From positions 1 through 58,914 of the IMG/VR virus record IMGVR_UViG_3300023283_000071: a DNA stretch of 58,914 bases. One strand, 5' to 3'. Shown here one piece after another: positions 1 to 26,160 of this stretch. The notes beneath the pieces are model-generated. The model saw only the letters and a program-made list of their open reading frames with translations, did no database searches and was not told the DNA's origin. Within the stretch, counting starts at the first letter, position 1; each line of letters begins with the position of its first letter. The translations under genes and the position numbers were made by a program. The stretch is from a virus.

Positions 1-17
1 AAGCAGGGTCACCGGAG

Positions 18-3000
18 ATGTCTCCGGCTACCCGCAAGGCGCTCGACGAGTTCGCCCAGGACATCGCGCGCCCGGCCGCCATGGTCCAGAACCAGGCCGG
101 GGTAGAGCCGCCCGCCACTGCACCGCCTCCTGAGATCGAGGAGTCGGCAGGCTATTGGGCGTCGACGAAGCGTGGCATGGCGACTGCGGCGTATGGGGTC
201 AGCGAGGCGCTCTCTCTCGTCGGCGACGTGCTCGGCGTGGAAGCCATCGAGGAGCGCGGCGAGGCCGGCGCCCAGTACTGGAAGAAGGTTCTGGAGCGGC
301 CCGAGCTGCAGCGCCCGGAGTTCATGCGCCATGGACTCGTCGAAGGACTGAAGCGGCGTCCTCTCGACTACTCGATCAACCTCCTGCTGGAGAACATCCC
401 GCTGCTGGTGACGATGATGTCCGGCGGCGGCGTGGCGGGTGTGGTCGCGGCGCGCGCGTTGCCGGCGGCGGTGAAAGCCGGGATCAAGGCCGGCAACCCG
501 GCCGCCATCTCACGGGCGAGGAAGACCATCGGACGCGCGGCGATGGGCGGGGCTGCCCCGACAGCGGGGGCAATCGAGGGTGGCTTCGCGCGCGGAGAGG
601 CGCTGGAGGCGGGGGCCACCGACGAGCAGGCGCTGGAGGTGGCCCTCCGGGTGGGCGTCATCAACGCCGCCCTGGAGGTGACCCCCATCGGGCTGCTTTT
701 CCGCAACCCGGCCGGGCGCCGGCTCATCACCCGGATCGGGCAGCAGATCGTGGCCGAGGCCGGGACCGAAGCCGTTCAGGAGTTCAACAACAACCTGCAG
801 CACATGCTGGTGCACCAGCCCGACAAGACGCTGGAGGACCTGTTCGAGGGGACCCCTGAGGCTGCGTACGCCGGCGGCCTGATCGGCGCCCTCATGGGTG
901 CCGGTGGAGCGTGGTACAACCGGGGCGCGCCAGAAGAAGAGGGCGGCGCGGCAAGCGTCCGTGGCGCTACGGGCGATGGGGGCTACTACACCCGCGAGAT
1001 CGACGCCGGCGATCCGGATGCCCCCACCGAGCTCGCCGGCGGCACCTCGGCAACCCAGGAGGGTCCGGACACCGACAGGCCGACCGATCTAGCCGGGAAC
1101 CCGGAGGCCCCTCCTGAGCCCTCTGGAGGACCTCCCCAGGGCCCGTCCGGTCCCACCGGGGGGCCGCCTCAAGGAGTGGCGCCGGGAGAGCCCCCGCCCG
1201 ACTTCGATCTGCAGCCTCCTGGGCCACAGCCTGTGCCTGGCGCTGTGGGCGCGCCTCAACCCCCACCGCCAGGTCCTCCGGCCGCTCCTGCGGCTCCCAC
1301 GGAGTCCGTGGAGCCCATTCCGGCGCCACCCACGACCCCGGAGCAGTTCCAGCCGACCCACACGACCCCAGAGGGCACCGAGATCATGGCGGGCGAGGGG
1401 GGCTACTACACCCGCGAGATCGACGCCGAAAGCGGCGAGCGCCGGCCGGTGCTGAAGTTCCACGAGGGCACGACGGTCACTACTCGTGAGGGGCGCCAGG
1501 TCCCGATCGCGGAGATGGAGGTCACGCCAGCCGAGGAGAGGCGACGCCTCGAGGCGGCCGGCCAGGGGAAGCTGCCAATCCCGGAGCCACGGGAGACCAT
1601 CGATGAGGCAGAGGGCGACGCGGCTGCCTCGCCGGAGAACCAGCGTCCCGAGCCTACCCCCGCCCAGAAGGAGGCCGGGAACTATCCCAAGGGGCACGTG
1701 AAGCTCCACGGGCGCGATCTCTCGATCGAGACCCCCCGCGACAGCCATCGCTGGCAGCTCGCAACCGAGCGCCTGAAGATGATGGCCGAGCAGGAACACA
1801 AGGACGATAACGTCAGCAGGTTCATCCGTAAGGCGCTGCGTCTGCTCGAGAAGAACGAGACCGTGCCCGAGGGTTTCGACGTGCTGCGCCGCATGGTGGG
1901 GTTGTCGGACAAGCCCGGCGATTGGGCGACCGAGGTGCGCGACGAGCTCCGCGGCATCCTCGACCGTGGCTGGATCCAGAAGATGAGCCACACCTACGGC
2001 TACATCCGGGGAACCACGGGCTTCGACAAGGACCACCTCGACGTCTTCCTCCATCCGGACGTGGAGAGCCGGCCGGACGCGCCCGTGTTCGTCGTCAACC
2101 AACAGGACGAGGCGGGGGAGTTCGACGAGCACAAGGTGATGATGGGCTTCACCTCTGAGGCCGAGGCCCGAAAGGCGTATCTGGAGAACTACCCGAAGGG
2201 GTGGGAGGGTCTCGACAGCGTCGTCCAGCTCACGCCAGAGCAGTTCGACCAGTGGGCCCGCAGCGACGCGCCGAAGAAGGGCAAGCTCGAGGGCCCTCCG
2301 GAGACGGCCGTCCCGAAACCGGGAAAGGGGGAGAAGCCCCCGCCGTCTCCAGAGCGCCCTTTCACCCCCACCCACGAGCTCCCGGACGGGACGCCGGTCC
2401 GCCACGTCGAGGACGACGTGTACGTGGACGCACAGGGACAGGAGTGGGAGGAGCCGAACGCCGCGCCGATCGAGACCGAGCCCGACGACGATCGAGAGGA
2501 CCTCGCCAAGGAGGAACCCCCAGAGGAGTCACCTGAAGACGAAGGTACCCCCACCGAGCCTGACGACGATCGCGAAGATGTCGCCTCCGAGAGCGAGCGT
2601 CTTGCCGGGGAGTTCCAGCACTTCTTCGCTGGCGCGGACAACTCGTTCAAGGACATCCGAGAAGCAAGAAAGTGGGCAGGCGAGCGCCTCGGGCGCAAGG
2701 TGGCTCCAGGGACGGCGGACGCCAAGCTCGTCGATGAGTCCATGGAGGCGGGACTCGTCCGCGCTGCCCGCGAGATCGTGCGCTCGGGAAGAAAGAACAA
2801 CCGCACGTGGGACGTGATCTTCGACCGTCTGGTCAATCTCTACGAGCGCCAGCCACGCCTCGGCGTGCGCACTTCCACCAGCGTCTCACAACAGGCGTAC
2901 TCGACCCCCATGCCGATCGCGTGGGCGGTGTCCGTTATCGCTGATGTCGGAGAGAACACCACCGTATACGAGCCGTCCGCAGGCAACGGAGCACTCCTGA

Positions 3001-6000
3001 TCGGAGCGGATCCGGGGAACGTTCACGCCAACGAGTTGAACGAGGATCGCTCGGAAACGTTGGAGGCTCAGGGTTTCGGAAAAGTCACTCGCTTCGATGC
3101 GGCCACGGAGAATCCGGGGAAACAGCACGATGTCGTGCTCGCGAATCCTCCATTCGGCGTGGTGCACAACCCGGATGGGTCCGCCAAGAAATTCCCGATC
3201 CAGACTCACAAGGGGGAGAAGCGGACCACCCAGATCGACCATGCGATCGCGATGCGATCGCTCGCATCGATGAAGAAAGGCGGGACTGCGGTCCTGATCC
3301 TCGGCAGCGTACGCAAGACGGCAGCCTCAGAACAGGCCCGTTCGGACGCCTACCACAGCGCCCAGAAACGAGACTTCTTCTGGGCGCTGTATCACCAGTA
3401 CGAGGTGGTCGATCACTTCACCATCGCCGGCGAGCTCTACGAGAAGCAGGGCGCCGGGTGGCCGATCGACATCGTCGTGGTCAAGGGGCGGAAGGATGCC
3501 CCGGAGCAGACGCGCACCCTGCCGGCGAAGAACCTGCCGGACATCCTGCGCTCGTTCGCCGAACTTAAGGAGAGAGTCCGTGGGCACGAAGCTGGTTTAT
3601 ACCGACCCGAATCCGAGGGCGTGGGCGCCGGAGAGCAATCCGGCGGCCCTCGTGGTTCAACTGAGGCCGAAGGACGGCCTGAATCTCAACCTGGTGCGGT
3701 ACCTGGACCTGTTGCGAGACCGGGTGGCGTGGCTGGCGCAGGGACAGGAGGAGGACGCACTGGGGGCGGCGGCCGATCGTCTGGAACCGCTGCTGGACCT
3801 GCCTCCAAGGGTGAGCAGCCCCCTGGCGTTCGCGGTGGACGTGAGGGACGACCTGAGCCTCCGGACGTGGTTGACCGTCCACGTGGTGCCCGAGGGGAAG
3901 GAGAACTGGAAGGCGAAGCCGAGCCCGGAGGCCTTGAAGGCGCTGAGGGGAGTAAGCCTGGGGCAGTGGGTGGAGAGCCTGCTGGCGCTGGAGACCTCGG
4001 GCGAGAGCTGGAGTCAGCCAGCGAGGAGGACATCGACAGCCTGATCGACGACGCCCTCGGGGAGGCGGCCCCGGAACCAGCCGAGGCTCGCCCGGAGCAG
4101 AAGAAGGAATCTCTGAAGGGCGCTGCATCCGAATCGGGAAAGGCGATCAGCAGCGCGCTCGACGCCATCTGGGAGTCGACCGGCGGGGGCTCTCCAGCCA
4201 CCTTCAAGTCCGGTCCGTTCGCCTTCGACGAGCAGGGTTACCAGAGGATCAAGGGACACCTCAAGGCGTCTCTCGAGCACACCGTCGCCGCCGGCGGCCA
4301 TCTCAAGGACTTCATCCAGGCCGTGTTCGCGGATGCTGCCCGCTTCCCTCGTGAGTGGGTCGAAAACCTGCTGCGACCGGCGGTCAAGCGGTTCGTCAAC
4401 GAGGTGAACAAGGGGCTCATTCTCATCAAGGGCCTCAATGACCACAAGAAGCGGGTCCAGCAGCAGGACAAGCCCACCGAGCACCAGGTGTCCTACGAGC
4501 CGGGAAGCGATGGTACCCCTGGCGGCACCTTGATCCCAAAGAACATGCGAACGGCTGTCAAGGAGTCGCTCGGAGACGTGAAGAAGCGCAGGGGTCCGCT
4601 TTCAGAATACGTCATGGCTCGACTTGGCTACACGCGCGAGCAGCTTGACGAATACTTCCTGGCAGAGCAGATCGACGCGCTCGCGCTCGCGATCGACAAC
4701 ATGGAGCGCGGCGGGGCGTTCATCATCGGAGACCAGACCGGAGTCGGAAAGGGGCGAGTTGTTGCCGGAGCCCTGCGCTACGCCATGCGCCAGGGGAAGG
4801 TCCCTGTCTTTGTCACCGAGAAAAAGAACCTCTACAAGGACATCTACCGGGACTTTGTGGACATCGGCATGGGGGACGTCACTCTGTTGATGACGGACGC
4901 CAGCGAGAAGGTGTTTCTCACCGACGATAAGTCGATCTCCCTGCGTACCCCGGACGCACAATCCCACAACGCCAACCTGATTCGGATTGCTAGAGGAGTT
5001 CAGGGACTCGATCAGGCATTCGAGAACGTGCCTGCAGACGTGATCGTCACCACGTATTACCAGATGCAATCGGAGAAAGGGGCGCTGACGCCAAGACGAG
5101 AGTTTCTGAACGCGATCGCTCCGAACGCGATGTTCGTCTTCGACGAGACACACAACGCCGGCGGAACGGAGACCGTGAAGCGAGACGCTGATGGCGCGCC
5201 AATCATGGACCGTGCCCGCTACGTGCGCCATCTGGCAGCTACCGCGTGGCAGGTTTTCTTCTCGTCCGCGACGTACGCGAAGCGGCACGACGTCATGGAC
5301 CTCTACGCCCGCACGGACATGCGCTATGCGGTATCCAGCATCGAGGGCTTGGGAAATGCGATAAAGAAGGGAGGAGTGCCTCTGCAACAGGTGGTGGCGT
5401 TGATGTTGGCGAAAGCCGGCCAATACCTGCGCCGAGAGCGTAGCTTCGACGGGATCGAGTACAGCACTCCACTGGTTGAGGTGAACCAAACCGCATACGC
5501 GAACTTCTCCAGGACGATCGAGGCGATCCATGAGTTCTCGAAGCAGGTCGAAGTGGTCACGTCTCACATCGACGACGAGCTGAAAGGTCAGGGGATGCAT
5601 GCCGGTGCCGATCAGAGCACGGGAGGAGCGGGGGCCGAGAGCACCAAGTTCACGTCGATCATGCACAACTTGATCTCGCAGCTTCTGCTTTCGCTCAAAG
5701 CTCAGCCCTCTGTGGATATGGCGCTCGAAGCAATCGCCAACGGGCAGAAGCCTGTGATCACCGTGTCGAACACCATGGGATCGTTCCTCGACGAGTACGC
5801 CGAGGCGATGGAGCTGAACAAGGGAGATCTGGTCGCTCTGAATTTCACCGACCTTCTCAAGCGTTATCTCGACAAGACACGAACCATCACGAAGCGAGAG
5901 CCGTTCGGAGAGGCCGAGCGCCACTATCTGACGGACGAGGAGCTCGGCCCTCAAGGAGTAGCCCTGTATAACAGGATTGCCGACTTCATGGCATCCCAGG

Positions 6001-9000
6001 ATGAGATGAAGTCGTTGCCGGTCAGTCCGATCGACTACATCATCGACAAGATCGAGCAGGCGGGCCACACCATCGGGGAAATCACTGGACGCGAAAAGCG
6101 GGTTCGTATGGAACGCTACGAGGACCAGGACGGTAAAACGGTAGAGCGTCCGGTCCTCGACCGCCGGCCCGATTCAATTTCCTTGCGCATCGAGACGATC
6201 CTCAGATACAACCAAGGAGGGGAGAACGGTCTCGATGCGTTGATCATCAACCGGGCCGGATCTACAGGGATCTCCCTGCATGCTTCGGAGAGTGTGGGGG
6301 ACCAGCGCCAGCGCACCATGATCATCGCGCAGCCCGAGGATAACATCGACACGCACATGCAGGTCTTGGGGCGCATCAACCGCACCGGACAGGTGGTGAA
6401 GCCCCGCTATCTGCAACTGGTCGCTGACATTCCCGCCGAGAAGCGGCCTGCCGCTGTGCTCTCGAAGAAGATGGCGAGCCTGAACGCCAACACGACGGCG
6501 GCCCGATCTAGCTCGCTGACGGCTACCGATGTTCCGGACTTCATCAACGAGTATGGAGACGAGGTGGTCGGGCAAATCCTCGACGACGATATGGAGCTGT
6601 TTTACAGGCTCGACGTCAACGCCAAGCTGAGAGAAGGGACGATCGCTCGAGAGGATCTGGCACGCAAGACGACCGGCAGGATCCCGCTACTTCCGATCGA
6701 GGATCAGGAGGCCCTATACGACAGGATTGAGAGCGATTACAAGGAACTGATCGCGCAGCTCGACGCCACCGGCGCGAACACCCTGGAGGCGAAGTACCTA
6801 CCCCTCGACGCCGAGGAACTGAACCGCAAGCAACTCAAGGAACCGCTGTCCAATGTTGATTCTCCGTTCGCTGAGGGGGCGGATGCGGTCCGGTACCGCA
6901 TCAACGTGCTCGGCAGACCCTATCCGACGTCGAAGGTGCTTAGAGATCTGTCCGAGCGCCTCGGACGAGGCTACAGCGAATCGGAGAGTCCCGAGGAAGC
7001 CGCGACCGCGCTACGGCAGCTAGGTCGCGAGGGACGTCGAAAGATCCTTCAGGACGCGAAGGTCGAGTTCGAGTCCTACAAGCGGGAGGTGGTGGACCAG
7101 ATAAAGGACGAAGGGAAGGCGCGGAAAGAGGAAGCGAAGCTGGATCAGCAGTGGGAAAGGTTTGCTGCCACGATCAAGCACATCTTCCCTGGCAACCAGG
7201 TGCAGCTTGATGCGCACTCGGGGCGCACGTTGGGCACGATCATGGATGTCGTGCCGACCGGCGAGACGAAGAATCCGATCGCCGGCGGCGGTTGGAAGGT
7301 AACGATCTATCTGGTCTCGAGCGCGCGCCAGATCACGCTACCGCTATCTCGTCTCAAGCTGTTCGGCACCGTGGCCGGGCAGAGCATGCAGGAGAAGATA
7401 CAGGGTATCGGCGCGACCTCGTTTATTGTGGGAACGGCTCCGGAACTGCAGACCCCGATCATCCTCCGCTACGACGAGATGCAGGAGCAGCGCCGGGAGG
7501 AGCGATGGATCGTCACTGGGAACCTGCTCGCCGGATTCGACGCCGCCGGCGCCAAGGGTCAGATCATCACCTTCGAGACCCGAGAGGGGACTGTGGTATC
7601 GGGCATCATGATGCCCAAGGAATGGGACGTGGACGCGGCAATCGGGGGACAGCCGGTGCGGTTCTCGGAGGCGTCTCAGGTGGTCGCCTACGTGGCCCGG
7701 GTACGAAAGTATCCCGCGTTCGCCGCCGACAACATCGTCAGGATCATGGACGACAAGGGCCAGGGGATCCGAATCCTGGTCGAGCCTTCCCGCAGCACCG
7801 GCGGGAAATACTACATGAACGAGGGGGTGCTCGAGGCGCTCGGAGAGGACTTTGTTTCTTCCGGCTCCAGCATGGTCGCCCGGGTTTCCTACGACGGTGC
7901 CCAGAACGTCGTCCAGGCACTCATGGACGCCGGCGCGGAGTTTGAGGCCCGCACCGAGAAGGACATCGCCCGCCAGATCGCGGGCTTGCCGCCGGTCCAG
8001 GAGGCGAGACGAAGCGCGCCGGCGGCGGCCACGGGGCGTTCGACCACCGTCCGCCAGGCTCGGGAGGCGATCGCTGACCAGGTGGGCGAGAAGGCGCTGC
8101 GCCACCTCGAGCAGCTCGGCGTGATCACGCTCGTCCAGTCTCGCGGCGAGCTCCCCGAGCACCTCCAGAAGGACGCCGGCGCCGGCGTGTACGACTTCGA
8201 GAACCACCGCGCCTACCTGGTGGCCGACGAGATGGGCAAGGAGGACGCCTACGGGCTGTTCCTGCACGAGGTGGGGGTCCACTACGGTCTCGAGGGGTTG
8301 CTCGGCGAAGATCTGTTCGACCGGGTGCTACGGCAGCTTCGCGGCCTCGAGGCGTCGGGGAACAACGCGGCTCGGAGGGCCCGCGAGCAGGCCAGGAAGA
8401 AGCGGTCGGACGCCAGCGAGGACGAGGAGACCCTCGCCTACGTGGTCCAGGACCCGGCGAACCACAAGCTCTCGCTGGTACGCCGGGTGGTGTCCGGGAT
8501 CCGGGCCTTCCTGTTCCGCATCGGCGTGGTGAAGCGGCTGTCCATCGACGACATCGTGATGTTGGTGCGCGCTGCTGCGCGCCGGCCTCGGCCCCAGACC
8601 GAACGCCGTGCCCGGAAGGGTGCACGTGCCCATTCGGTGAGGATGCCTACCGACGAGCAGGAGCGTCGGTACCAGGAGGCCAAGAAGGGTCTCGGAGATC
8701 AGCGAAGCCTTGTTCAAAGGGTCCGGGACCACATAACGCACACGTGGCATGGGATCAGCCGGCACTTCATTGAGCTTCCAAACACGCCGTTCTTCGCTCC
8801 CGCGTTCGAGATTCTGAGAGAGTTCGAGGCTGCCCCGGAGGCGGCTAAAGAAGAAGCCGTGCGCAGGTTGCAGAGGGTTGTGGGAAAGTTCAACGACAAG
8901 GATCTCGACCTGTTCACCAGAAAGGTTCTTCTCGACGATCTCCAATGGGAGATTGACAACGAGCACGAGTTGCCCTTCGCCTTGAGCCCTGAAGACCACG

Positions 9001-11729
9001 CCGCCGCCAAAGCCGACGTTGATGCAGCGGTGGCCGATAACCCGGACGTCCAGGAAGCAGTGCGCACGCGCTCCCGATTCCTGGCCGATCTGCGAGACAG
9101 GCTGGTTGAGGCTGGGGTGTTGTCTGAGGAACGGGCAAACAACCCGCACTACTTCCGGCACCAAGTTCTGCTCTACGCGAGATTGAATCAACGCGGCCAG
9201 AGCGCACGGAAGGTGAAGAAGCCGAGACCAGGCTACGCGATGAAGCGCGAGGGATCTCTACACGACATCAACGCACACTACATCGAAGCCGAATTTGACT
9301 TCATTCATCGCGCCCTGATCGACCTGAAAGCAGTATCAACGATCGCCAAAATTGACGACCGTTACAACATCCAGGGAGATCTCAAGAACAAGGCCCGCAT
9401 GGCGAACACCGCGGCGATGGAGGGCATCATCGCACAGGACATCGAGGAGAACGGGTGGGAGCTTGAAAACGGAAATCGCACCAGCCCGCTCGACCAACAG
9501 TGGAAGGGGTACAAGCAGCGCATTGCCAGGGGGACACAGAGTCTCGGGAAAATGCTGCTGGCCGATGGGGCCCCGGAGGTGCCGTCTCAGTATCAGGCTG
9601 CCGTCGAGGAGTTGATCGACTCGGCGCGGGAGCACCAGGAGCAAGCGGCCGAGGGAGTGCCTCTGGAGGAGCGAACTCAGATCGGCGCGATCAGCGACGA
9701 GGCTCAGGCGCAGTTGTTCCCGCTGTTGAGGTGGCTTCTACAGAACGACGCGACCGGCGCGGCTCCCGCGGGAATGATTCTGAAGGCCGTGAGCGAACGG
9801 CGGGAGTTTCTGAAGGAGAGTCTCGGGAAGAACTACAAGACGTGGAGAAGCCTAGTCCCTGACGGCTACGTCACGTGGCAGCCTGAGAAAGGCAATATCT
9901 TTTACACCGCCAAGACGTTCGGCGAAGACGTGATGAATCGCCTTCTAGGGATGGCCGAGGAATACGCACCTGCCAGTGTGGATAAAAGCGCCATACGGGA
10001 CGTAGTGGGGCGTATGAAGGACGCCGTCGTACTTGGTCAGAAAAAAAAGGAACTGGTCATCCCGGAGGAACTAGCAGCCACTCTCGAACACATGGCGCCA
10101 GATCCGCATGATGGACTGTTTGACCATCTATTCGGTGATCCGTTGAGGTGGTGGAGGCAGTGGGTGCTGATCAACCCGAGGCGGGTCCTCAAGTACAACC
10201 TCAACAACCTGTCCGGAGATCTGGATGCGGTGATCGCGGGGGCGCCCAGCGTTCTAAAGAAATTGCCGAGGGCGATCCGAGAATTGTACGATGTGATGCA
10301 CGATCGCGCAGAGCCCTCCGAGCTTTTTCGAGAGGCCGTGGACCGGGGAGTTTTCGACTCTGGGTTGACGATTCAGGAGATCCCGGACATCAACTATCTG
10401 TCGAAGTTTCGCAACCTGGTCAAAAAATCCACGCTCAGAGAGCCCGGTAGGTTCACTGTCAGTAACATCGCCAGAGTGTGGCATGGCCTTCGTGACTACA
10501 CCCGGTTCCGGGAAAACTGGATGCGCTACGCGGCCTTTCTACATTATGTGGAAAAGCTCGACAGCGGAGTCCCATTGGAAAACATTGGGTTCGGAGGCTC
10601 TAATCCCGACGCCGTAAAGGCGATCTATGAATCGGAAGGACCTCATGCCGTAGCGGGGCTACTCGCCCGCGAGCTCGTGGGGGATTACGGCGCGGTCAGT
10701 CACTACGGACAGGAGATTCGGCAGAAACTTATCCACTTCTACTCGTGGATGGAGATCAACACGAAGCGTTACACCAGGTTCTTCCGTAACGCATGGGAAC
10801 AGGGCTTCGGAAGTACCGCGAGGGTAACGGGAGTGCTAGCGGCTTCGGTCGCAAGAAAAGGGGCGCTCCTAACGGCAGGGCTCTACGTGAGGATGTTTCT
10901 GCTGTTCATGATCCTGAATGCGTGGAATCATCTGATGTTCGGCGACGAGGAAGAAGAACTAAATGACCACGATCGCGTTCGTCTCCACATCATTCTTGGG
11001 CGCAGCGATGACGGCACCATTCGCCTGATCCGCTTTCAGGGCGCGCTGTCCGACTTCCTCGACTGGTTCGGGTGGCAGGAGGCGGTGGCGGTCATGTCCG
11101 CCGTCGAGAAGGGGCGCGGCACCGCAACCGATCTACTCGAGACAGTTGCCCAGGCGCCAATCAATAAGATCTTCATGGGATTGACGCCCGTCATCAAGAC
11201 GCCCTTGGAGTTGATGTCCGGGCTAAGTTTTTTCCCGGACGTCTTCAACCCGAGGCCGATACGCGATCGCGGCCGGCACGTAGCTCGGCTGTTCTCCGCG
11301 GAACATGAATACGACGTGTTCACAGGCAGGCCGTCGAGAGGCTATGCGCAGTCCCTTGAGGAAACCGTCATTGTCCGCAGGGACGCTGGCGAGATCGCCT
11401 ACAACAAGATCAAAGGGCTCGAGTATGACTGGGCGGAAAAACAGCGCGGCACGTCCGGTTTTTCCACTATACAGACCGCACGGAGCCAGGCGACGTACCG
11501 CTGGAAGATCGCGACGAGGTACGGGGACAAGGATGCGGCGAAGCGCGCCATGGCAGATCTTAAGGCCATGGGCGTGACGAAAAAAGACATCAACAGAATC
11601 GTGAAGCGGGGTCGCCCTCTGGGAGTGATCGCCGCCAGGGACCGCGGGCGATTCCTCCAGAGCCTGACTGCGAGGGAGCGTGAAACGCTGGAAGCCGCAA
11701 AGCTTTGGTACAAGGACACGTTCCGCTAA
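18..11729 (+). CDS. Giant polyvalent multi-domain protein with a family-I pyrophosphatase-like module, N6-adenine DNA methyltransferase, SNF2/SF2 helicase, HExxH zincin-like module and a long C-terminal region with hydrophobic helices. This is the 3' part of an ORF that starts at 58349 across the circular junction.
   Basis: Uninterrupted 3903-codon ORF. Motifs read directly: YGYIRGTTGFDKDHLDVFL (nt 1995-2051; compare PPase YGFIPxT..DGDPxDV); EPSAGNGAL plus NPPF (3144-3155), which are amino-MTase motifs I and IV; GDQTGVGKGR Walker A (4728-4757); DETH (5142-5153); QVLGRINRTGQ helicase motif VI (6360-6392); HEVGVH (8265-8282). The frame is open from nt 1, so the Met at 18 is internal. Confidence 0.9.
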   Translation: MSPATRKALDEFAQDIARPAAMVQNQAGVEPPATAPPPEIEESAGYWASTKRGMATAAYGVSEALSLVGDVLGVEAIEERGEAGAQYWKKVLERPELQRPEFMRHGLVEGLKRRPLDYSINLLLENIPLLVTMMSGGGVAGVVAARALPAAVKAGIKAGNPAAISRARKTIGRAAMGGAAPTAGAIEGGFARGEALEAGATDEQALEVALRVGVINAALEVTPIGLLFRNPAGRRLITRIGQQIVAEAGTEAVQEFNNNLQHMLVHQPDKTLEDLFEGTPEAAYAGGLIGALMGAGGAWYNRGAPEEEGGAASVRGATGDGGYYTREIDAGDPDAPTELAGGTSATQEGPDTDRPTDLAGNPEAPPEPSGGPPQGPSGPTGGPPQGVAPGEPPPDFDLQPPGPQPVPGAVGAPQPPPPGPPAAPAAPTESVEPIPAPPTTPEQFQPTHTTPEGTEIMAGEGGYYTREIDAESGERRPVLKFHEGTTVTTREGRQVPIAEMEVTPAEERRRLEAAGQGKLPIPEPRETIDEAEGDAAASPENQRPEPTPAQKEAGNYPKGHVKLHGRDLSIETPRDSHRWQLATERLKMMAEQEHKDDNVSRFIRKALRLLEKNETVPEGFDVLRRMVGLSDKPGDWATEVRDELRGILDRGWIQKMSHTYGYIRGTTGFDKDHLDVFLHPDVESRPDAPVFVVNQQDEAGEFDEHKVMMGFTSEAEARKAYLENYPKGWEGLDSVVQLTPEQFDQWARSDAPKKGKLEGPPETAVPKPGKGEKPPPSPERPFTPTHELPDGTPVRHVEDDVYVDAQGQEWEEPNAAPIETEPDDDREDLAKEEPPEESPEDEGTPTEPDDDREDVASESERLAGEFQHFFAGADNSFKDIREARKWAGERLGRKVAPGTADAKLVDESMEAGLVRAAREIVRSGRKNNRTWDVIFDRLVNLYERQPRLGVRTSTSVSQQAYSTPMPIAWAVSVIADVGENTTVYEPSAGNGALLIGADPGNVHANELNEDRSETLEAQGFGKVTRFDAATENPGKQHDVVLANPPFGVVHNPDGSAKKFPIQTHKGEKRTTQIDHAIAMRSLASMKKGGTAVLILGSVRKTAASEQARSDAYHSAQKRDFFWALYHQYEVVDHFTIAGELYEKQGAGWPIDIVVVKGRKDAPEQTRTLPAKNLPDILRSFAELKERVRGHEAGLYRPESEGVGAGEQSGGPRGSTEAEGRPESQPGAVPGPVARPGGVAGAGTGGGRTGGGGRSSGTAAGPASKGEQPPGVRGGREGRPEPPDVVDRPRGARGEGELEGEAEPGGLEGAEGSKPGAVGGEPAGAGDLGRELESASEEDIDSLIDDALGEAAPEPAEARPEQKKESLKGAASESGKAISSALDAIWESTGGGSPATFKSGPFAFDEQGYQRIKGHLKASLEHTVAAGGHLKDFIQAVFADAARFPREWVENLLRPAVKRFVNEVNKGLILIKGLNDHKKRVQQQDKPTEHQVSYEPGSDGTPGGTLIPKNMRTAVKESLGDVKKRRGPLSEYVMARLGYTREQLDEYFLAEQIDALALAIDNMERGGAFIIGDQTGVGKGRVVAGALRYAMRQGKVPVFVTEKKNLYKDIYRDFVDIGMGDVTLLMTDASEKVFLTDDKSISLRTPDAQSHNANLIRIARGVQGLDQAFENVPADVIVTTYYQMQSEKGALTPRREFLNAIAPNAMFVFDETHNAGGTETVKRDADGAPIMDRARYVRHLAATAWQVFFSSATYAKRHDVMDLYARTDMRYAVSSIEGLGNAIKKGGVPLQQVVALMLAKAGQYLRRERSFDGIEYSTPLVEVNQTAYANFSRTIEAIHEFSKQVEVVTSHIDDELKGQGMHAGADQSTGGAGAESTKFTSIMHNLISQLLLSLKAQPSVDMALEAIANGQKPVITVSNTMGSFLDEYAEAMELNKGDLVALNFTDLLKRYLDKTRTITKREPFGEAERHYLTDEELGPQGVALYNRIADFMASQDEMKSLPVSPIDYIIDKIEQAGHTIGEITGREKRVRMERYEDQDGKTVERPVLDRRPDSISLRIETILRYNQGGENGLDALIINRAGSTGISLHASESVGDQRQRTMIIAQPEDNIDTHMQVLGRINRTGQVVKPRYLQLVADIPAEKRPAAVLSKKMASLNANTTAARSSSLTATDVPDFINEYGDEVVGQILDDDMELFYRLDVNAKLREGTIAREDLARKTTGRIPLLPIEDQEALYDRIESDYKELIAQLDATGANTLEAKYLPLDAEELNRKQLKEPLSNVDSPFAEGADAVRYRINVLGRPYPTSKVLRDLSERLGRGYSESESPEEAATALRQLGREGRRKILQDAKVEFESYKREVVDQIKDEGKARKEEAKLDQQWERFAATIKHIFPGNQVQLDAHSGRTLGTIMDVVPTGETKNPIAGGGWKVTIYLVSSARQITLPLSRLKLFGTVAGQSMQEKIQGIGATSFIVGTAPELQTPIILRYDEMQEQRREERWIVTGNLLAGFDAAGAKGQIITFETREGTVVSGIMMPKEWDVDAAIGGQPVRFSEASQVVAYVARVRKYPAFAADNIVRIMDDKGQGIRILVEPSRSTGGKYYMNEGVLEALGEDFVSSGSSMVARVSYDGAQNVVQALMDAGAEFEARTEKDIARQIAGLPPVQEARRSAPAAATGRSTTVRQAREAIADQVGEKALRHLEQLGVITLVQSRGELPEHLQKDAGAGVYDFENHRAYLVADEMGKEDAYGLFLHEVGVHYGLEGLLGEDLFDRVLRQLRGLEASGNNAARRAREQARKKRSDASEDEETLAYVVQDPANHKLSLVRRVVSGIRAFLFRIGVVKRLSIDDIVMLVRAAARRPRPQTERRARKGARAHSVRMPTDEQERRYQEAKKGLGDQRSLVQRVRDHITHTWHGISRHFIELPNTPFFAPAFEILREFEAAPEAAKEEAVRRLQRVVGKFNDKDLDLFTRKVLLDDLQWEIDNEHELPFALSPEDHAAAKADVDAAVADNPDVQEAVRTRSRFLADLRDRLVEAGVLSEERANNPHYFRHQVLLYARLNQRGQSARKVKKPRPGYAMKREGSLHDINAHYIEAEFDFIHRALIDLKAVSTIAKIDDRYNIQGDLKNKARMANTAAMEGIIAQDIEENGWELENGNRTSPLDQQWKGYKQRIARGTQSLGKMLLADGAPEVPSQYQAAVEELIDSAREHQEQAAEGVPLEERTQIGAISDEAQAQLFPLLRWLLQNDATGAAPAGMILKAVSERREFLKESLGKNYKTWRSLVPDGYVTWQPEKGNIFYTAKTFGEDVMNRLLGMAEEYAPASVDKSAIRDVVGRMKDAVVLGQKKKELVIPEELAATLEHMAPDPHDGLFDHLFGDPLRWWRQWVLINPRRVLKYNLNNLSGDLDAVIAGAPSVLKKLPRAIRELYDVMHDRAEPSELFREAVDRGVFDSGLTIQEIPDINYLSKFRNLVKKSTLREPGRFTVSNIARVWHGLRDYTRFRENWMRYAAFLHYVEKLDSGVPLENIGFGGSNPDAVKAIYESEGPHAVAGLLARELVGDYGAVSHYGQEIRQKLIHFYSWMEINTKRYTRFFRNAWEQGFGSTARVTGVLAASVARKGALLTAGLYVRMFLLFMILNAWNHLMFGDEEEELNDHDRVRLHIILGRSDDGTIRLIRFQGALSDFLDWFGWQEAVAVMSAVEKGRGTATDLLETVAQAPINKIFMGLTPVIKTPLELMSGLSFFPDVFNPRPIRDRGRHVARLFSAEHEYDVFTGRPSRGYAQSLEETVIVRRDAGEIAYNKIKGLEYDWAEKQRGTSGFSTIQTARSQATYRWKIATRYGDKDAAKRAMADLKAMGVTKKDINRIVKRGRPLGVIAARDRGRFLQSLTARERETLEAAKLWYKDTFR

Positions 11730-11980
11730 TCGGCGAGTCCGTAGTACTCCAGTTTGCTCCGAAGTGTCTTCCGGTTTATCCCAAGAACAAGCGCCGCCTT
11801 GCTCTGGTTTCCGTGACAGAAGGACATCACGGCCGAGAGCGCCGGGATCTCGATCTCCCGGATCAGCACCCGATAGAGGTGTCCGGGATCCGTTTCGTGT
11901 ACGCGCGCCACCAGCGTCGATGCCACGGAATCTCGTACGTGCTCCCGGAGCGCGATATCGGGGTTCTTCTTGCTCAGCAT
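11726..11980 (-). CDS. Fis-family small HTH DNA-binding protein
   Basis: Track ORF 11726..12112 trimmed to the ATG at 11980, which lies 1 nt after the upstream TGA. LYRVLIREIEIPALSAVMSFCHGNQSKAALVLGINRKTLRSKLEYYGL aligns with E. coli Fis [48 protein letters not shown]. Its stop overlaps the stop of the convergent giant ORF. Confidence 0.8.
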   Translation of the reverse strand: MLSKKNPDIALREHVRDSVASTLVARVHETDPGHLYRVLIREIEIPALSAVMSFCHGNQSKAALVLGINRKTLRSKLEYYGLAD

Positions 11981-11981
11981 G

Positions 11982-12359
11982 TCAGGTGCACGGCGGCCAG
12001 TATTCGCGAGCAGATCCGTAGTGCTTGGCGACGAAGCCGACCCGGCCGTAGTGACGCCCGTCGAGGCGATAGAAGTTCTCTGCGAGCCACGCCGGGCGCT
12101 TCTCGAGGTCATCCGGGTAGAGCGTAGCCGAGAGGGCGAGCTTCGCGGCCTCGGCCGCCTCGTCCGCCTCGGCCATGATGCCGTCCGTGCGGTAGATCGT
12201 GTTCGTCGCCGGATTCCACAGGGCCCGGCCGCGCGTTCCCTCGGGGCGCATCGCGCGCATCTGCTCCCACGTCACGACCTCGACCGTGGGCTGGCTGACG
12301 GGCACTGGCTCGAGCCCCAGAAGGGCGAACACACACAGCATGTTGATGGCGGATTCCAT
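11982..12359 (-). CDS. Hypothetical protein with a hydrophobic, signal-like N-terminus
   Basis: Track ORF 11982..12401 trimmed to the ATG at 12359, which is preceded by GAGGAGG. The N-terminus reads MESAINMLCVFALLGLEPVPV. No family recognised. Confidence 0.55.
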   Translation of the reverse strand: MESAINMLCVFALLGLEPVPVSQPTVEVVTWEQMRAMRPEGTRGRALWNPATNTIYRTDGIMAEADEAAEAAKLALSATLYPDDLEKRPAWLAENFYRLDGRHYGRVGFVAKHYGSAREYWPPCT

Positions 12360-12369
12360 GGCAGCCTCC

Positions 12370-12774
12370 TCAGTAGATGGTCTTGATGGCCCAGCGAACA
12401 TCGCAGGGCCAGCAGATGCCTGCCTCTGGCCCGAGTTCTACGCCGTCTTCCCTGGCTTCGTTGCAGTCCTTGTACTTCTTCTTCCCTTTCCGGATCGGTC
12501 CCACCTCGCATGGAGTTGCCCGCAACGTAGCGACGATGCGGGCGAGTGCCGGCGGGTACTCGCCGAACGAGATCCACGAGGGGGTGAGGGACAGCGCCTT
12601 CGCCAGCTCCGGGATTATCCGCGGGCGCAGCGACTTCCCGTTCTCGATCTTCTGAATGACCGGCTGAGAGGTCCCGGCGCGAGCGGCCACGTCCTCCTGC
12701 GAGAGTGACAGCCTCAGTCGGGCGTCACGAACCCGATCGCCGATCGTCGCGCGGCTGCTTGAGTCGGTTTTCAT
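12370..12774 (-). CDS. XRE/Cro-CI family HTH regulator with a Cys-rich C-terminal extension
   Basis: [41 protein letters not shown] is a classic XRE HTH. The C-terminus has four Cys (CEVG..C..CWPC). The ATG at 12774 lies 47 nt inside the 3' end of the csrA-like gene. Confidence 0.8.
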
Positions 12775-12907
12775 CGCGGCTGATCTCCACGTGTCTAGGG
12801 GCCTCGATTCCGATACGTACGGTGTTCCTGTCGATCGAGAGGACCGTAACGACGACGTCGTCGCCGATGTAGATGGACTCCGGTGGCTTGCGAGATAGTA
12901 CGAGCAT
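12725..12907 (-). CDS. csrA: CsrA/RsmA-family RNA-binding translational regulator
   Basis: [46 protein letters not shown] aligns residue for residue with E. coli CsrA [46 protein letters not shown]. The ATG at 12907 shares one nt with the sbcC-like TGA (TGATG). The track start at 12910 is an upstream GTG. Confidence 0.9.
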
Positions 12908-15363
12908 CACAGCCTCCCGAAATTGATCTGGTGGTCAGCCATCTGCTGAACCTCGGGGGTGTGAGAAATGAAGAACTCGCCCTCGTACCCGCCGAGCCGG
13001 AGGACCTCGCGCTTCATCGCCACCAGCTCCAGCTTCTTCTCGTGGTCGAGCGCGCCGTCCATCTCGTCGGTAAAGATGGTTCGGTATCTATGCCCGGATG
13101 ACTGCGCCAGGTAAAGGGCGATGGCCTTCATCAGGGCCTCGTCCACGTAGACCTTCTGCCCTCCGGACATGGAGCGGACGGACTTCGAGGTCTCCCCCTC
13201 GGCGTCGTGGACGACGATGTCGAAGTCCTCCTTCATGTCGCCGGTCTTCTTCACCTCGCTCTGAGTCTTGAAGCTCACCGTGTACCGTGAGCCGAAGCAT
13301 GCGATCAGCAGATCGTTCGCCAGCGACGAGATCGCCGGCCCGGCGTCGTCGATGCACAGTGCGATGATCCCGTCCGTGGAGAGAGCGGTCGAGAGCTCGT
13401 GCCAGTACGGCAGTTCCCTCTCCAGCGTCTTCACCTCCTCGCGAACGCAGGCGAGCCGTTCCAGGTGCTCCTCGCAGGACCGTATGCTTGCGCGGGCGGA
13501 CTCCTCGGCTGTCTTCGCAGCCGAGAGATCGGAATCCGACGCAGCCGCTTCGCTCTCTGCCGAGCGTACGTGTTCGCGCGCGCCTTCCAGGGCGGCAGCG
13601 TCGTACGCCGGGATCGCTTCGATCTGCGCGTGGATCTTCGCGGCCTGCTCCTCGCCTTTCTTCTGGAGATCATGCAGTTTCTTCGCGTGCCGATCCTGTG
13701 CTTCAAACTCCGCGGTTGCGGCGCTTTTGATGGCGGCATCCTGCCGTTCCTGTTCTTCTGCGGCGGCGGCCGCGTCAGTCTCGAGGTGGCCTCGCTCCTC
13801 CTTGGCGCCCTTCAGTGCCGATTCATCGGCCGCGAGTTCTCGTTGAGTGGTGAGCTTCGCGTAAGCGTCCTTCCTGGTCTCGTCCATATCGGAGAGGGCA
13901 CTCTCCGTCGTGTCCGCCTCGTCGAGCCCCTTCTCCTCCCTGTACGTTCTGGCACGCTCCTTGAGGTCCTCGTACTGCTGCAGCATCTCGTCCTTCTCGG
14001 CCGAGATTTGAACGGCTCGCTTCGACGCATCCCTCGCATTCCCGAGTAGCTGGCAGGTCTGGTTCATCTCGGTGCCGACGCACGGCACCTCCTCGATCAG
14101 GCGGCTGCGCTCCGAGGCGTCCTCGAGCTTCTCGGCCAGGTGCTTCCCCTTGGCCTTGATCTCCTGCCCGTCTGCCTGCATACGCTGCAGCTCGCGCTCG
14201 GCCTGGTAGCGGACGTCGCGCGCCACACGCGCTTCGTCCATCTGGGCTGAGATCTTCTCGATCTCTGCCTCGAGTCGCTTCACCTCCTCGGCGGCGCGCC
14301 GGATCTGGCTCTCGCGGGCGAGAAGCCGGTCCTTCTCCTCGATCCGACGTCGGATCTCCTGTGTCCGGGCGGCGGCCCGATCTCGCGCCCGAAGCGCCTC
14401 CTGGTGGGCGTGGGAAAGCCGCTGCTGCTCGTCACGGGACTCGGCGCGGTACTTGGCTACCTCCTGCTCCGTCGCCTCCTGTGCGGCCTGTAGCTCGCTC
14501 TCGAGGGCACGCCGGCGCTCGATGTCAGCCTCGGCCGCCTTTGCCCGCTCCTCCTCCCTCACGAGGTCCTCGCGGGCGCGCGTGAGGGCTTCCTCCCATT
14601 TCTTGTGCGCCGCAACAAGCCGCTCCACCTCGGCCGCCTTCTCGGCCTGATCCGAGCGCGCCTGCTTCAGGCGTGCCTCGGTGCTCTCGACGTCCTCCCG
14701 CGTGCTCCTGTGGGCCTCCAGGCGCGCCCTGAGCCCCCTCCTGACCTCCCGGGCCCGGTCGCCCAGGGCCTCCACCTCGGCGAGCCCCAGGAGCTCGCTG
14801 AGGAGCCCCTTGATGTCGCTCTGTCGGTAGGTGGAGAGGTGGCCCCGCCCTTGTGCCGAGAAGACCGACGAGAAGAACAGCTCCGGCGATCCGAAGATCG
14901 AGCTTACACAGGCGTCGTGGGTGTCCGTCTTCCCGTCCGAGGTCGTCCCATCCGGGAGGGTGACGGGCTCCCACTCGGCATTGCTGAGATCGAGCGAGGC
15001 ATCCACACGACGAGAGGCGCGGTGTATCTGGAGGTATGCCTCCTGCTTCCTGGACTTTCCCCCGCCGTGGATCAGCACGATGGAGCGATACGCCTCACCT
15101 TCGTGCTCGCACGCAAACTCCTTGCGGGCTTTCAGATGGGTCTGGTCGTAGAAGCTGAATGCTCGCGGCGAGTAGGACGAAGCTCGCGATGGCATGAGCC
15201 GGTACGGGTGCATGTTGTCGAGCACCGTCGTCTTCCCACGGCCGTTCGGCCCGACCAGGGCCACGAGCCCCTCGTAGCCAGCGAGATCGATCTCGAACGA
15301 GTCGCGCCCGAGGCCGTCCCGGATACCGATGAAGTTGTCGAGCTTGAGATAGAGGGGCTTCAT
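12907..15363 (-). CDS. sbcC: SbcC/Rad50-family ATPase (SMC-like, long coiled coil)
   Basis: N-terminal Walker [12 protein letters not shown], a central E/A/R/K-rich coiled coil of about 450 aa, signature SMSGGQKV and Walker [11 protein letters not shown] at the C-terminus. There is a 4-nt overlap with the sbcD-like gene. Confidence 0.85.
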
Positions 15364-16613
15364 TCCAGGTGCTCCAGGGCCACGAGCTTCTCCACCGGAG
15401 TCTCCGACTGGAGCAGCGCAAGCCGCTGCATCAGCTCGGCTTCATGGTGGCGCGAGTCCGTGACCTCGATCCATCGATCGAGTCGTTCGTGCATCCCCGT
15501 GGCCTGGGTGATCCCTGCCGCCCGCTGCCGCTGGATGGGCAGCACCCGGGGCTCGCACTTCAGTTCTGCCGCGGCCTCGAACAACTCCTCTATCGCGGCC
15601 CGGTCCACCGAATGGGCGTGCTCCTCGTCCACCGACCACCGCAACCGCACGTGGGCATCCTTGGCCTCGGCGGCGATGCGCTTCACGATCTCCATGTCGG
15701 GTGGTCCCTCAAACGTGTGCTCGACCAGCCGCTTCGCCGGCGTCTCACAGAGCGCGAGCGTCGCCACCTGTCCATCGTGGCTGAATTCCCACCGCAGCCA
15801 GCCTTTCGGATCCACTTCGCCAAAGTGGAGTCGGCCGATGGAGCCCGGGTAGGCCCCTACCATCCCGTCGCGGCTCCAGGACTGGTGCTTGTGGATGTGG
15901 CCGAGCATCACGGCCGCGGCCTCGGAGGCGAACAGAGTGGCCTCGGTGAACTCGTGGTCGAGTCCGTGCATCGGGACTCCCTGCTCGGTCACGGAGCCGA
16001 CCACGGTGCCGTGAGAGAGCAGTACGGTCGGTGGAATCGACGGGCGGCCGCTCCGCATGATCTCGTTTGCCGGCGCGAAGGCGCGGAGCATCTGGTGCAC
16101 CGCGTCCCCGGCGGCCTCGGCCGCCTCGTCGGCCCCCACGGTTGCCGCGAGCGCCCCTTTGTGAATGGCCGGCAGACAGGAGAACAGCGCCAGGATGGCG
16201 CCGTCGAGATCGTCCAGCTCATGCTTGGTGAAAGTGGTGGCGTGGCTGGCGATCCACTCGAGGCCGTCGTTAGCGTCCTCGATCAGCACCACCTGGGAGA
16301 TCCGATCTGCGACCCACACCGGGTAGAGTGGCGTGAGGGTCCTGAATACGTCCAGGCTCCCCGGGACGTCGTGGCTGAAGGTGCCCTGGAGGATGATCAC
16401 CGGCATGTAGCTGGCGAGATCGTAGACCTCGGCAAGAAGGGCCGAGACCGCGGGCGAGTGCACGTCGAGGCGACGGTCGAACAGATCGCCCGTGATCACG
16501 CCGATCCCGCACTGCTCGTTGCAGGCGCGGGAAACCGCGTGATGGAAGCACCGACGCACCTCGGCGAGGTACGGATCGCAGAAGTGGAGGTCTGAGAAGT
16601 GGGCGATCTTCAT
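15360..16613 (-). CDS. sbcD: SbcD/Mre11-family metallophosphoesterase nuclease
   Basis: MKIAHFSDLHF, GDLFDR, and later GHIH/HG motifs typical of calcineurin-like nucleases. It sits directly upstream of the sbcC-like gene. Start taken at the ATG at 16613 rather than the TTG at 16622. Confidence 0.85.
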   Translation of the reverse strand: MKIAHFSDLHFCDPYLAEVRRCFHHAVSRACNEQCGIGVITGDLFDRRLDVHSPAVSALLAEVYDLASYMPVIILQGTFSHDVPGSLDVFRTLTPLYPVWVADRISQVVLIEDANDGLEWIASHATTFTKHELDDLDGAILALFSCLPAIHKGALAATVGADEAAEAAGDAVHQMLRAFAPANEIMRSGRPSIPPTVLLSHGTVVGSVTEQGVPMHGLDHEFTEATLFASEAAAVMLGHIHKHQSWSRDGMVGAYPGSIGRLHFGEVDPKGWLRWEFSHDGQVATLALCETPAKRLVEHTFEGPPDMEIVKRIAAEAKDAHVRLRWSVDEEHAHSVDRAAIEELFEAAAELKCEPRVLPIQRQRAAGITQATGMHERLDRWIEVTDSRHHEAELMQRLALLQSETPVEKLVALEHLE

Positions 16614-16626
16614 GGTTCGCAATTCT

Positions 16627-25639: not shown

Positions 25640-26140
25640 TCACAGCAGGCCACGTTCGGCGAACGAGGTGCTGACCCCGGCGCCGATCACGAAGTGATCG
25701 AGCACGCGCACCTCGACGAGGCCGAGCGCGTCCTGGAGCCGCCGGGTGAGGGCCCGATCCGCCTGGCTCGGCTCGGCGACGCCGGAGGGGTGGTTGTGGG
25801 CCAGGATCACCGCCGCCGCGTTGTGGCGGAGCGCGCGCTTCACCACCTCCCGCGGGTGCACCGAGGCGCCGTCGATGGTGCCGCGGAACAGCTCCTCGAA
25901 GCGGATGACCCGGTGCCGGTTGTCGAGGAACAGGCAGGCGAACACCTCGTGCTCGAGCGCCTCCAGGCGGAGGCGCAGGTAGTCTCGGGTCTCGCTCGGG
26001 CTCGAGAGTTGCGGGCGGTCTCGGAGCGCCGCGGCCCGTGACTCGAGGATGTGCAAAGCCTGCGCGATTGCCTCAGCCTCGGCCGGGGTCAGGTTCGTGC
26101 CGGGGGTGTACTCGGCTGCATCTTCTGATCTCGCCTGCAT
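25640..26140 (-). CDS. radC: RadC-like JAB/MPN domain protein
   Basis: [43 protein letters not shown] is the canonical RadC JAMM block. ATG at 26140. Confidence 0.85.
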
Positions 26141-26160
26141 GTCGTGTCTCCTCTCTCTCT

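Follow-up and report, generated by a model that had tools for sequence, protein, structure and literature searches.

Giant open reading frame of the window

The window analysed here, the whole 58,914-nucleotide (nt) stretch of IMG/VR virus record IMGVR_UViG_3300023283_000071, contains a giant open reading frame (ORF) in which an InPase domain, an N6-adenine (N6A) methylase, a Strawberry-notch helicase and an HExxxH domain are combined. Bases 1-64 of the window were identical to bases 58851-58914, and the window was therefore taken to be a circular assembly of a 58,850-bp (~58.85-kb) podophage genome. In the linear window the ORF runs from the first in-window ATG, at position 18, to position 11729 (+ strand; 3,903 amino acids, aa). 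Its frame is open upstream across the join as far as an ATG at 58349, immediately after the TGA of the ORF at 57104-58348. The joined ORF (58349-58850 plus 1-11729, + strand) has 12,231 nt, encodes 4,076 aa and occupies 20.8% of the 58,850 bp, in agreement with an earlier interpretation made from the letters alone (hereafter the sequence-only reading), which had given about 4,076 codons and one fifth of the genome. Residue r of the giant protein corresponds to nt 3r-504 to 3r-502. The features of the ORF, all on the + strand, were as follows.

58349-58850, +: 5' part of the giant ORF, residues 1-167, continuing at base 1 once the 64-bp overlap is removed
1-11729, +: remainder of the giant ORF, residues 168-4076 and stop codon
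58599-58787 (copy 1) and 58788-58850 plus 1-126 (copy 2), +: perfect in-frame 189-bp (63-codon) tandem duplication in the Pro-rich N-terminus, spanning the circular join
396-452, +: hydrophobic helix just upstream of the N-terminal module, residues 300-318 (hydropathy)
552-905, +: conserved ~120-aa Ala/Gly-rich N-terminal module (N-module), residues 352-469 (iterated hidden Markov model, HMM, searches)
939-1448 and 2319-2618, +: long linkers
1644-2273, +: InPase domain, type-I inorganic-pyrophosphatase-like, of the polyvalent-protein clade (PF18823; best Pfam stretch nt 1968-2258)
2619-3593, +: N6-adenine DNA methyltransferase domain (motif I EPSAGNG at nt 2970-2990; motif IV NPPF at nt 3144-3155)
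3594-4088, +: Gly/Arg/Pro-rich low-complexity linker, 26% Gly
4476-7988, +: Strawberry-notch-type superfamily 2 (SF2) helicase and conserved post-helicase region (AAA_34 at nt 4641-5495; Helicase_C_4 at nt 6030-6773)
8046-8588, +: probable zincin-like metallopeptidase domain (HEVGVH at nt 8265-8282), directly before the C-terminal module
8616-11726, +: conserved all-helical C-terminal "carrier" module (C-module), residues ~3040-4076, ~1,030 aa
10029-11726, +: second half of the C-module, homologous to the LPD38-containing C-terminus of Bcep22 gp75
10860-10916, +: hydrophobic helix in the C-module, residues 3788-3806 (hydropathy)

Three properties indicated that an ORF of this length is not a chance or high-GC accident. 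The GC content at third codon positions was 0.72-0.84 in each 1.5-kb slice over the full length, versus 0.39-0.56 at second positions; the longest antisense ORF opposite it has 488 aa; and at least 17 metagenomic database proteins are colinear with the giant protein over 2,500-3,000 residues that include the methylase, helicase and C-module. We also considered whether the ORF is an artefact, that is, a chimeric or mis-joined assembly, or several genes run together through sequencing errors, with its length inflated by the terminal duplication. The contig join does lie inside the ORF, at the perfect duplication, and the upstream ORF is in the same frame with one stop between them. A sequence look-up of the exact 3,903-aa product found no other record, and a megablast of window positions 1-12000 against phages gave no match. 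Set against these points are the independent colinear proteins, the uniform coding bias, and the presence of ORFs of 3,400-3,900 aa with the same C-terminal module in bacterial chromosomes and metagenome-assembled genomes (MAGs). In addition, the repeat-to-repeat junction needs spanning reads, so that at most the copy number is in doubt. We regard an artefact as very improbable.

The duplication is, for the same reason, probably real in at least part of the population. Since it sits at the contig join, the true length of the protein could be 4,013 aa, and the copy number of the repeat is uncertain without reads. A related 61.5-kb viral contig (L005) likewise breaks within its own giant ORF, and N-terminal repeats may be a common cause of assembly breaks in such giant ORFs. 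Regarding the upstream side, only a TGA followed by an ATG (58346-58351) separates the 414-aa upstream ORF from the giant ORF, and readthrough of the TGA at 58346 would yield a fusion of ~4,490 aa. As a shared frame has a chance of one in three, it may mean only that translation of the two ORFs is coupled.

C-terminal module

The sequence-only reading had recognised nothing in the C-terminal third of the giant protein, a claim overturned by homologue searches that used the last 1,199 aa and the last 1,047 aa as queries. HMMER with the last 1,199 residues identified 2,727 cluster representatives at E <= 1e-3 (1,593 at E <= 1e-30), and query residues ~160-1198 always aligned to the extreme C-terminus of proteins of 2,000-6,600 aa. 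The best 150 homologues all shared residues ~3040-4076, about 17% of them also had the methylase and helicase, and about 10% had the InPase; by BLAST among these 150, none shares the first 600 residues. As it is the only part common to all of the best 150 homologues, the C-terminal third is the most conserved, family-defining part of the protein. Its polar and aromatic motifs are strongly conserved, and some short family members contain little beyond it.

The cargo that precedes the module is variable. Pfam analysis of 15 diverse members identified ART-PolyVal, ddrB-ParB, RadC, PBECR5, MuF_C, LPD1 and 2'-5' RNA ligase, together with the murein hydrolases SLT, GH108 and Peptidase_M15, and one relative on a viral contig bears PBECR5, a methylase and RadC. 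Murein hydrolases would make sense as cargo only for proteins that cross the envelope, which supports the reading that members of this family are injected.

There is no Pfam model for the C-module, and a tblastn search with the C-terminal third had no match in 50,697 phage records or in PLSDB plasmids. The family has so far been seen only in metagenomes and prophage-like loci. ORFs of 1,300-3,900 aa with the C-module were identified in MAGs or chromosomes of Desulfobacterota, Gemmatimonadota, Bacteroidota and Verrucomicrobiota and in one Novosphingobium isolate (Novosphingobium sp. FKTRR1, L009). These genome-contig loci were found with a trimmed alignment of the C-module; a single-protein query of the same contigs found nothing. 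At two such loci the C-module ORF lies downstream of phrog_511 and phrog_578 virion-family genes, and both families are also present in the window. A different setting was observed on an ENA sediment contig (L002, positions 1-15000), in which a 1,563-aa protein (P0153) bears the second half of the C-module within a small island flanked by cellular genes. This island encodes an integrase, RadC, a resolvase, AlpA, a small terminase subunit and a DnaB-type helicase, and no capsid or tail genes could be recognised in it. Its make-up resembles that of a phage satellite with an ejected protein of its own.

AlphaFold modelling of the C-module from a 33-sequence alignment produced an all-helical structure (pLDDT 78.4, pTM 0.73), which contains the hydrophobic helix listed above, in keeping with the hydrophobic helices that the sequence-only reading had placed near 10.85-10.92 kb. 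Neither a sequence/profile search of the PDB nor a Foldseek search of the PDB with the model gave a significant match. Foldseek against BFVD returned 53 matches at E <= 1e-3, nearly all of which were the last pieces of giant phage proteins annotated as LPD, LPD38, LT_GEWL, ART-PolyVal, RelA/SpoT or Zeta toxin. One match (E 6e-7, TM score 0.29) was gp26 of the Anabaena cyanophage A-4L, annotated as a "tail protein" of 1,114 aa, which forms part of a pentameric pre-ejectosome whose structure was determined by cryo-electron microscopy (PDB 9k3a; PMC12002296).

These results raise the alternative that the C-module is an essential structural subunit of the ejectosome, the counterpart of T7 gp16 or A-4L gp26, forming a DNA conduit in the periplasm or inner membrane, and that the enzymes are dispensable N-terminal passengers. 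The alternative would account for the C-module being the sole universally conserved part, with its conserved motifs and hydrophobic helix, and for the short members, and the A-4L gp26 fold match is consistent with it. Some members bear SLT or GH108, like T7 gp16, and no other large internal protein is encoded between the tail fibre gene and the giant ORF. However, the module has no significant match to any solved ejectosome protein, and it is predicted to be a globular helical bundle with one hydrophobic segment and no obvious channel. We consider such a role quite possible, if short of probable, and it would refine rather than contradict our preferred explanation given below.

A relationship to a known phage protein was obtained by profile-profile comparison. 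In hhalign, the C-module profile matched that of the C-terminal family of Bcep22 gp75, whose members are almost all annotated with LPD38, at 95.6% probability (E 1.1e-8, 504 columns). The alignment covers C-module residues 482-1047, is colinear to the last residue of both proteins, and includes the LPD38 of gp75 (PF18857; residues 4283-4487) within the aligned stretch. Significance was reached only with the family profile; the match of the C-module to the single Bcep22 gp75 sequence was insignificant. Profile searches, which the sequence-only reading had proposed, produced this link to an LPD38-containing C-terminus and no match to an LPD model of Pfam. Among cultured phages, 337 records have a gp75-type C-terminus, those of Ralstonia, Stx-converting, Vibrio and Bacteroides phages among them.

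The N-module is a second part shared with gp75. Iterated HMM searches matched residues 352-469 of the giant protein at 1e-22 and residues 470-592 of Bcep22 gp75 at 2.7e-16, and placed the module at residues ~200-480 in about 80 family members. Iteration on an Ala/Gly-rich sequence can drift, and this result is to be taken with caution.

Enzymatic cargo and linkers

The N-terminal region is rich in proline, as the sequence-only reading had noted (16% Pro), and the linker that follows it has 23.5% Pro; the later Gly/Arg/Pro-rich linker was likewise correctly described. The pyrophosphatase-like block that had been placed at 1995-2051 lies within an InPase domain identified far above the Pfam cut-off (PF18823, E 2.7e-41, 141 bits against 26.8). 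This domain was the sole match when the PDB was searched with the 3,903-aa in-window ORF: it aligned with the last ~100 residues of a 765-aa portal protein of known structure (9b41_L, "gp19 Portal"). Numerous Pseudomonas and Escherichia myophages have portal or minor-head proteins that match it as well (about 400 phage records). Different fusions have therefore repeatedly put this pyrophosphatase-like domain inside capsids.

The amino-methyltransferase recognised earlier from its NPPF motif was borne out by the EPSAGNG motif and by matches to phrog_9133 (E 1.9e-14) and DNA-methyltransferase PHROGs. The order of motif I before motif IV, with NPPF 58 residues after EPSAGNG, is that of the gamma class. 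The Pfam N6_Mtase model scored below its cut-off on this domain, and a PADLOC scan of the giant protein gave only weak methylase matches.

The helicase had been described as SNF2-type. Its assignment to SF2/SNF2 stands, with a correction to the Strawberry-notch type (within SNF2), since the pair of AAA_34 (E 4.2e-20; 72.3 bits against a gathering score of 27) and Helicase_C_4 (E 6.6e-23; 82.2 bits against 30.5) both scored above their cut-offs. The helicase motifs are intact, with a Walker A GVGKG at residue 1748 and DETH at residue 1882, and QVLGRINRTGQ is readable in the translation. The methylase-helicase region had no match in the PDB sequence/profile search. Pfam searches of eight sub-segments at E up to 10 returned nothing beyond the InPase from the N-terminus, the linkers, the HExxxH region and the C-module; an NCBIfam search gave nothing useful; and no LPD or MPTase-PolyVal model of Pfam matched the giant protein.

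The block between the helicase and the C-module had been read as HExxH, and its sequence, HEVGVH, is HExxxH. Nine homologues share a pattern of a VYLVAD strand, LHExxGHYGL and a downstream AEE with an invariant Glu; in the alignment of the block, H99 and E148 are invariant and H94 is nearly so. The AlphaFold model (pLDDT 73.9) has three strands, a motif-bearing helix and a later helix with E148. The domain had no Pfam or PDB sequence match. An HEXXXH variant occurs among the metallopeptidases (MPTases) of polyvalent proteins, which PMC5512222 links to lethal factor. We consider a zincin-like metallopeptidase probable for this block from its motif and model, though not proven. With the InPase, the methylase-helicase dyad and this metallopeptidase-type block all in the vocabulary of polyvalent proteins, the architecture proposed in the sequence-only reading was upheld.

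Gene neighbourhood

The virion module of the window is encoded on one strand in the order large terminase, portal (SU10_portal), scaffold-like ORF, capsid protein, SU10_adaptor, ORFs without assignment, tail fibre, and the gene at 53297-55357. Three small ORFs follow, and then the giant ORF, which is the last gene of the virion module, as the sequence-only reading had stated, with minus-strand genes after it. The neighbouring features were as follows.

53297-55357, +: homologue of Bcep22 gp67, "internal virion protein" (phrog_511); full-length, 29% identity, E 2e-67
55986-57107, +: 373-aa ORF, 0 Cys, candidate ejection protein; weak match to virion structural family phrog_8003
57104-58348, +: 414-aa charged helical ORF, 0 Cys, candidate ejection protein
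12907-16622 (-), 18722-20287 (+), 20696-21889 (+) and 25640-26230 (-): SbcC/SbcD-like nuclease pair, replicative-type helicase, second stand-alone DNA methyltransferase and RadC-like protein

The start/stop coupling of the giant ORF to the two genes upstream, also noted earlier, is evident in the ATGA at 57104-57107 (373-aa and 414-aa ORFs) and the TGAATG at 58346-58351 (414-aa and giant ORFs). The same gene order is present in Bcep22 and JC1: after three tail fibre genes come gp67, genes for several small virion proteins, a "DarB-like" gene of 4,515-4,602 aa and two minus-strand genes, the "DarB-like" gene accounting for ~22% of a ~61-kb, 65% GC genome (PMC9144972). Importantly, mass spectrometry of CsCl-purified JC1 virions identified 51 unique peptides of gp69, a close homologue of Bcep22 gp75 (PMC9144972). 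In a phmmer comparison of the window's virion proteins with Bcep22 gp62-gp74, matches were confined to the tail fibre and the gp67 homologue, with none for the three small ORFs.

The gp67 homologue has, at residues ~207-260, a ~100-aa insertion relative to Bcep22 gp67 with a weak ubiquitin-E1 FCCH match (PF16190, 27 bits, just below the cut-off). The SbcC/SbcD-like pair lies directly downstream of the giant ORF on the opposite strand, and a terminator and promoter scan downstream of the giant ORF found nothing above chance. No PHROG match to a Dar partner was present among the scanned neighbours, in a scan that included no search dedicated to Dar partners. An 18,966-bp Logan contig (L028) from an independent public run, SRR23862446, encodes a major capsid protein identical to that of the window, with the same genes around it, and the phage or a near-identical relative could be recoverable from that sample.

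Two other identities for the giant gene were rejected from its context. A tape-measure protein does not agree with a gene that follows the tail fibre and internal-protein genes in a phage whose portal and adaptor are of the SU10 podovirus type, and a polyvalent protein of a conjugative element does not agree with a complete phage genome.

Cysteine avoidance

The giant ORF encodes no cysteine in 4,076 residues, enzyme domains included, and the same is true of the two ORFs directly upstream (0 of 373 and 0 of 414). By comparison, 19 other genes of the window encode 59 Cys in 8,127 residues (0.73%), a rate at which the probability of none in 4,076 residues is ~1e-13. Among the best 150 homologues, 123 have no cysteine and the pooled frequency is 0.019%. 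The same avoidance was apparent in proteins of other phages: the N4 ejection proteins gp50, gp51 and gp52 have 0 of 3,500, 0 of 644 and 0 of 150; Bcep22 gp75 has 0 of 4,602, and gp74, gp70 and gp68 also have none. A-4L gp26, gp27, gp28 and gp29 have 1, 1, 2 and 0, respectively, and the single cysteines of gp26 and gp27 are reported to form an inter-subunit disulfide pair (PMC12002296). Replication enzymes of the same phages have 1-2.5% Cys, with 2.5% in the replication helicase of the phage in the window. We read this avoidance, a correlation from few phages, as selection against disulfides during unfolded passage through the tail and periplasm, and as such it gives independent support for ejection. 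An ejection-protein review did not mention cysteine.

These counts also bear on the alternative that the giant protein is a late cytoplasmic enzyme complex for methylation, remodelling or repair of progeny genomes that is not packaged, its adjacency to virion genes being incidental. Methylase, helicase and pyrophosphatase are ordinary activities of DNA metabolism, SbcCD and helicase genes lie immediately downstream, and the giant protein of this phage is known from genes alone. Yet its strand, coupling and gene order are those of virion genes and of JC1 gp69, which was found in virions, and even its enzyme domains lack the cysteine that the phage's own replication helicase has. The murein hydrolases among the cargo of the family and the fusion of the InPase clade to portals also argue for the virion. 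We therefore find a cytoplasmic complex improbable.

Proposed role of the giant protein

Based on these findings, we consider it likely that the product of the giant gene is a polyvalent protein that a Bcep22-like podophage delivers with its virion, with variable enzymatic cargo between two conserved frame modules. Homology and position make it very probable that this protein is carried inside the virus head and enters the cell along with the DNA. The packaging and injection proposed in the sequence-only reading are strengthened by the gene order shared with Bcep22 and JC1, the homology to the gp75 C-terminus, the presence of JC1 gp69 in virions and the cysteine avoidance.

Several observations weigh against this explanation. 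We infer all of the packaging, ejection, processing and enzymatic activity of the giant protein from sequence. Some C-module proteins (L002 and L003) have no obvious virion genes around them. The link to Bcep22 gp75 is limited to the second half of the C-module, and the Pfam LPD38 model itself does not match the giant protein. The link to A-4L gp26 is one Foldseek match of moderate TM score between predicted all-helical models; the solved gp26 structure (9k3a_A) matched the C-module only at E 2.3, and as hhalign of the C-module family gave no signal against A-4L gp26 or gp27, that link stays a lead. The top PDB fold matches of the HExxxH model, anthrax lethal factor and selecase, are both zincins and were insignificant (E 0.3-2). 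The cysteine signature is a correlation and no established rule, and the one analogue whose function has been studied, P1 DarB, has little sequence in common with the giant protein and does contain cysteine.

If the giant protein is delivered in this way, the conserved end modules would bring a small number of copies into the procapsid core along with the products of the two small cysteine-free ORFs, in parallel with gp75, JC1 gp69 and N4 gp50. On infection the protein would be expelled via the portal and tail, strung out like beads in a loosely folded chain. Its long Pro/Gly linkers and its lack of cysteine would suit it to threading through a narrow channel and crossing the periplasm, which is oxidising. 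We speculate that the C-module, which contains a hydrophobic helix, may remain with or help to build an ejectosome that spans the envelope. From what is known of these families, the methylase-helicase dyad would act on the incoming DNA and blunt restriction, and the InPase would remove pyrophosphate or a nucleotide signal. The putative HExxxH peptidase, placed directly before the carrier, could cut the cargo free.

Together, the C-module and N-module may define a very large, unnamed "carrier" family of podophage ejection proteins, sister to the LPD38 carriers of Bcep22, Stx-converting and Ralstonia phages, within and between which cargo cassettes are swapped, and in that case cysteine avoidance would be a general signature. 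We put this forward tentatively. If it is true, cysteine avoidance would be a sequence-only signature that predicts podophage ejected proteins in any phage genome, and the avoidance common to the giant protein, N4 gp50-52 and Bcep22 gp75 would make a cheap test for ejection. Because a constant carrier is common to thousands of uncultured phage proteins with varying cargo, the cargo could be catalogued simply by anchoring on the carrier. Injected multi-enzyme proteins are the first move of a phage against host defences and are natural protein-delivery vehicles. The basic picture for Bcep22-like phages and polyvalent proteins is unchanged by our analysis; what is worth following is the large uncultured, unnamed carrier family, its shared N-module, the exchange of cassettes and the cysteine signature.

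Comparison with known systems

The giant protein is a phage-type polyvalent ("DarB-like") protein, very probably ejected, of a kind already known from Bcep22 and its relatives. Phage-type polyvalent proteins have two to fifteen distinct enzymatic or effector domains per polypeptide and are predicted to be delivered with DNA and to release domains by autoproteolysis, according to the study by Iyer, Burroughs, Anand, de Souza and Aravind (2017; PMC5512222). The vocabulary given there includes the InPase (PF18823), the methylase-helicase dyad, MPTases with an HEXXXH variant among them, and LPDs. The giant protein has the first two and a probable counterpart of the third, and its gene sits, like theirs, among the virion genes of a portal-terminase phage. 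A constant frame of a ~1,030-aa C-module and an N-module is not described in the passages of that study used here.

The closest counterpart in gene position and protein ends is Bcep22 gp75. The window phage and Bcep22/JC1 (Lessievirus, and related Ralstonia podophages) alike have genomes of about 60 kb and about 65% GC, in which the giant gene takes up about a fifth of the genome and is the last of a plus-strand virion module followed by small minus-strand genes. Both proteins have the ~120-aa N-module, the C-terminal ~570 aa (at the profile level), zero Cys, and a methylase and SF2 helicase in the middle. By its gene order and the profile match at its end, the giant protein is positionally and terminally homologous to the gp75-type giant virion proteins. 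The two differ in having no BLAST similarity over the first 3,500 residues and in their cargo: gp75 has SLT, an Eco57I-type methylase, a classical SNF2 helicase, LPD3 and LPD38, whereas the giant protein has the InPase, a different methylase, the Strawberry-notch helicase and the HExxxH block. Nothing in gp75 corresponds to the first half of the C-module, and by tblastn the C-module type matched none of the 50,697 phage records, against 337 for the gp75 type.

P1 DarB resembles the giant protein as a large capsid-carried protein with an N6A methyltransferase and an SF2 helicase, which protects incoming DNA from type I restriction. The likeness to DarB in the sequence-only reading was supported for the methylase, which is weakly similar (30% identity over 151 aa, E 3e-5, similar motifs; BLAST), and not for the helicase, for which BLAST gave no significant alignment. 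DarB has 9 cysteines in 2,255 residues. It belongs to a myovirus, its gene adjoins the portal gene and lies on the opposite strand, its incorporation requires DarA, Hdf and DdrA, and it has neither InPase nor C-module. Judged by sequence, the giant protein is not an orthologue of P1 DarB, and the comparison is only an analogy.

The virion RNA polymerase of N4, gp50, is similar in its beads-on-a-string organisation, which is proposed to unfold for passage through the tail, and in being encoded beside two smaller ejection proteins, gp51 and gp52, all three cysteine-free. It differs in its RNA polymerase cargo and in its family (Schitoviridae), and no sequence similarity was detected. Cyanophage A-4(L) gp26 resembles the C-module in being all-helical, with ~1,100 aa, and has very few Cys and a gene that is the last of the ejection-protein genes; it has no profile-sequence similarity to the C-module and is without enzymatic cargo.

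The closest cultured relative of the cargo is gp3 of Bacteroides phage BS-TP4 (5,391 aa, 4 Cys), whose gene adjoins the portal gene. Its InPase, methylase and Strawberry-notch helicase are colinear with those of the giant protein at 30% identity over about 2,100 residues. Its C-terminus differs from that of the giant protein in belonging to the Bcep22/LPD38 type (hmmsearch E 3.7e-113). BS-TP4 gp3 thus pairs this InPase-methylase-helicase cassette with a gp75-type C-terminus, and the presence of one cassette on two carrier types points to the exchange of cargo between carriers.

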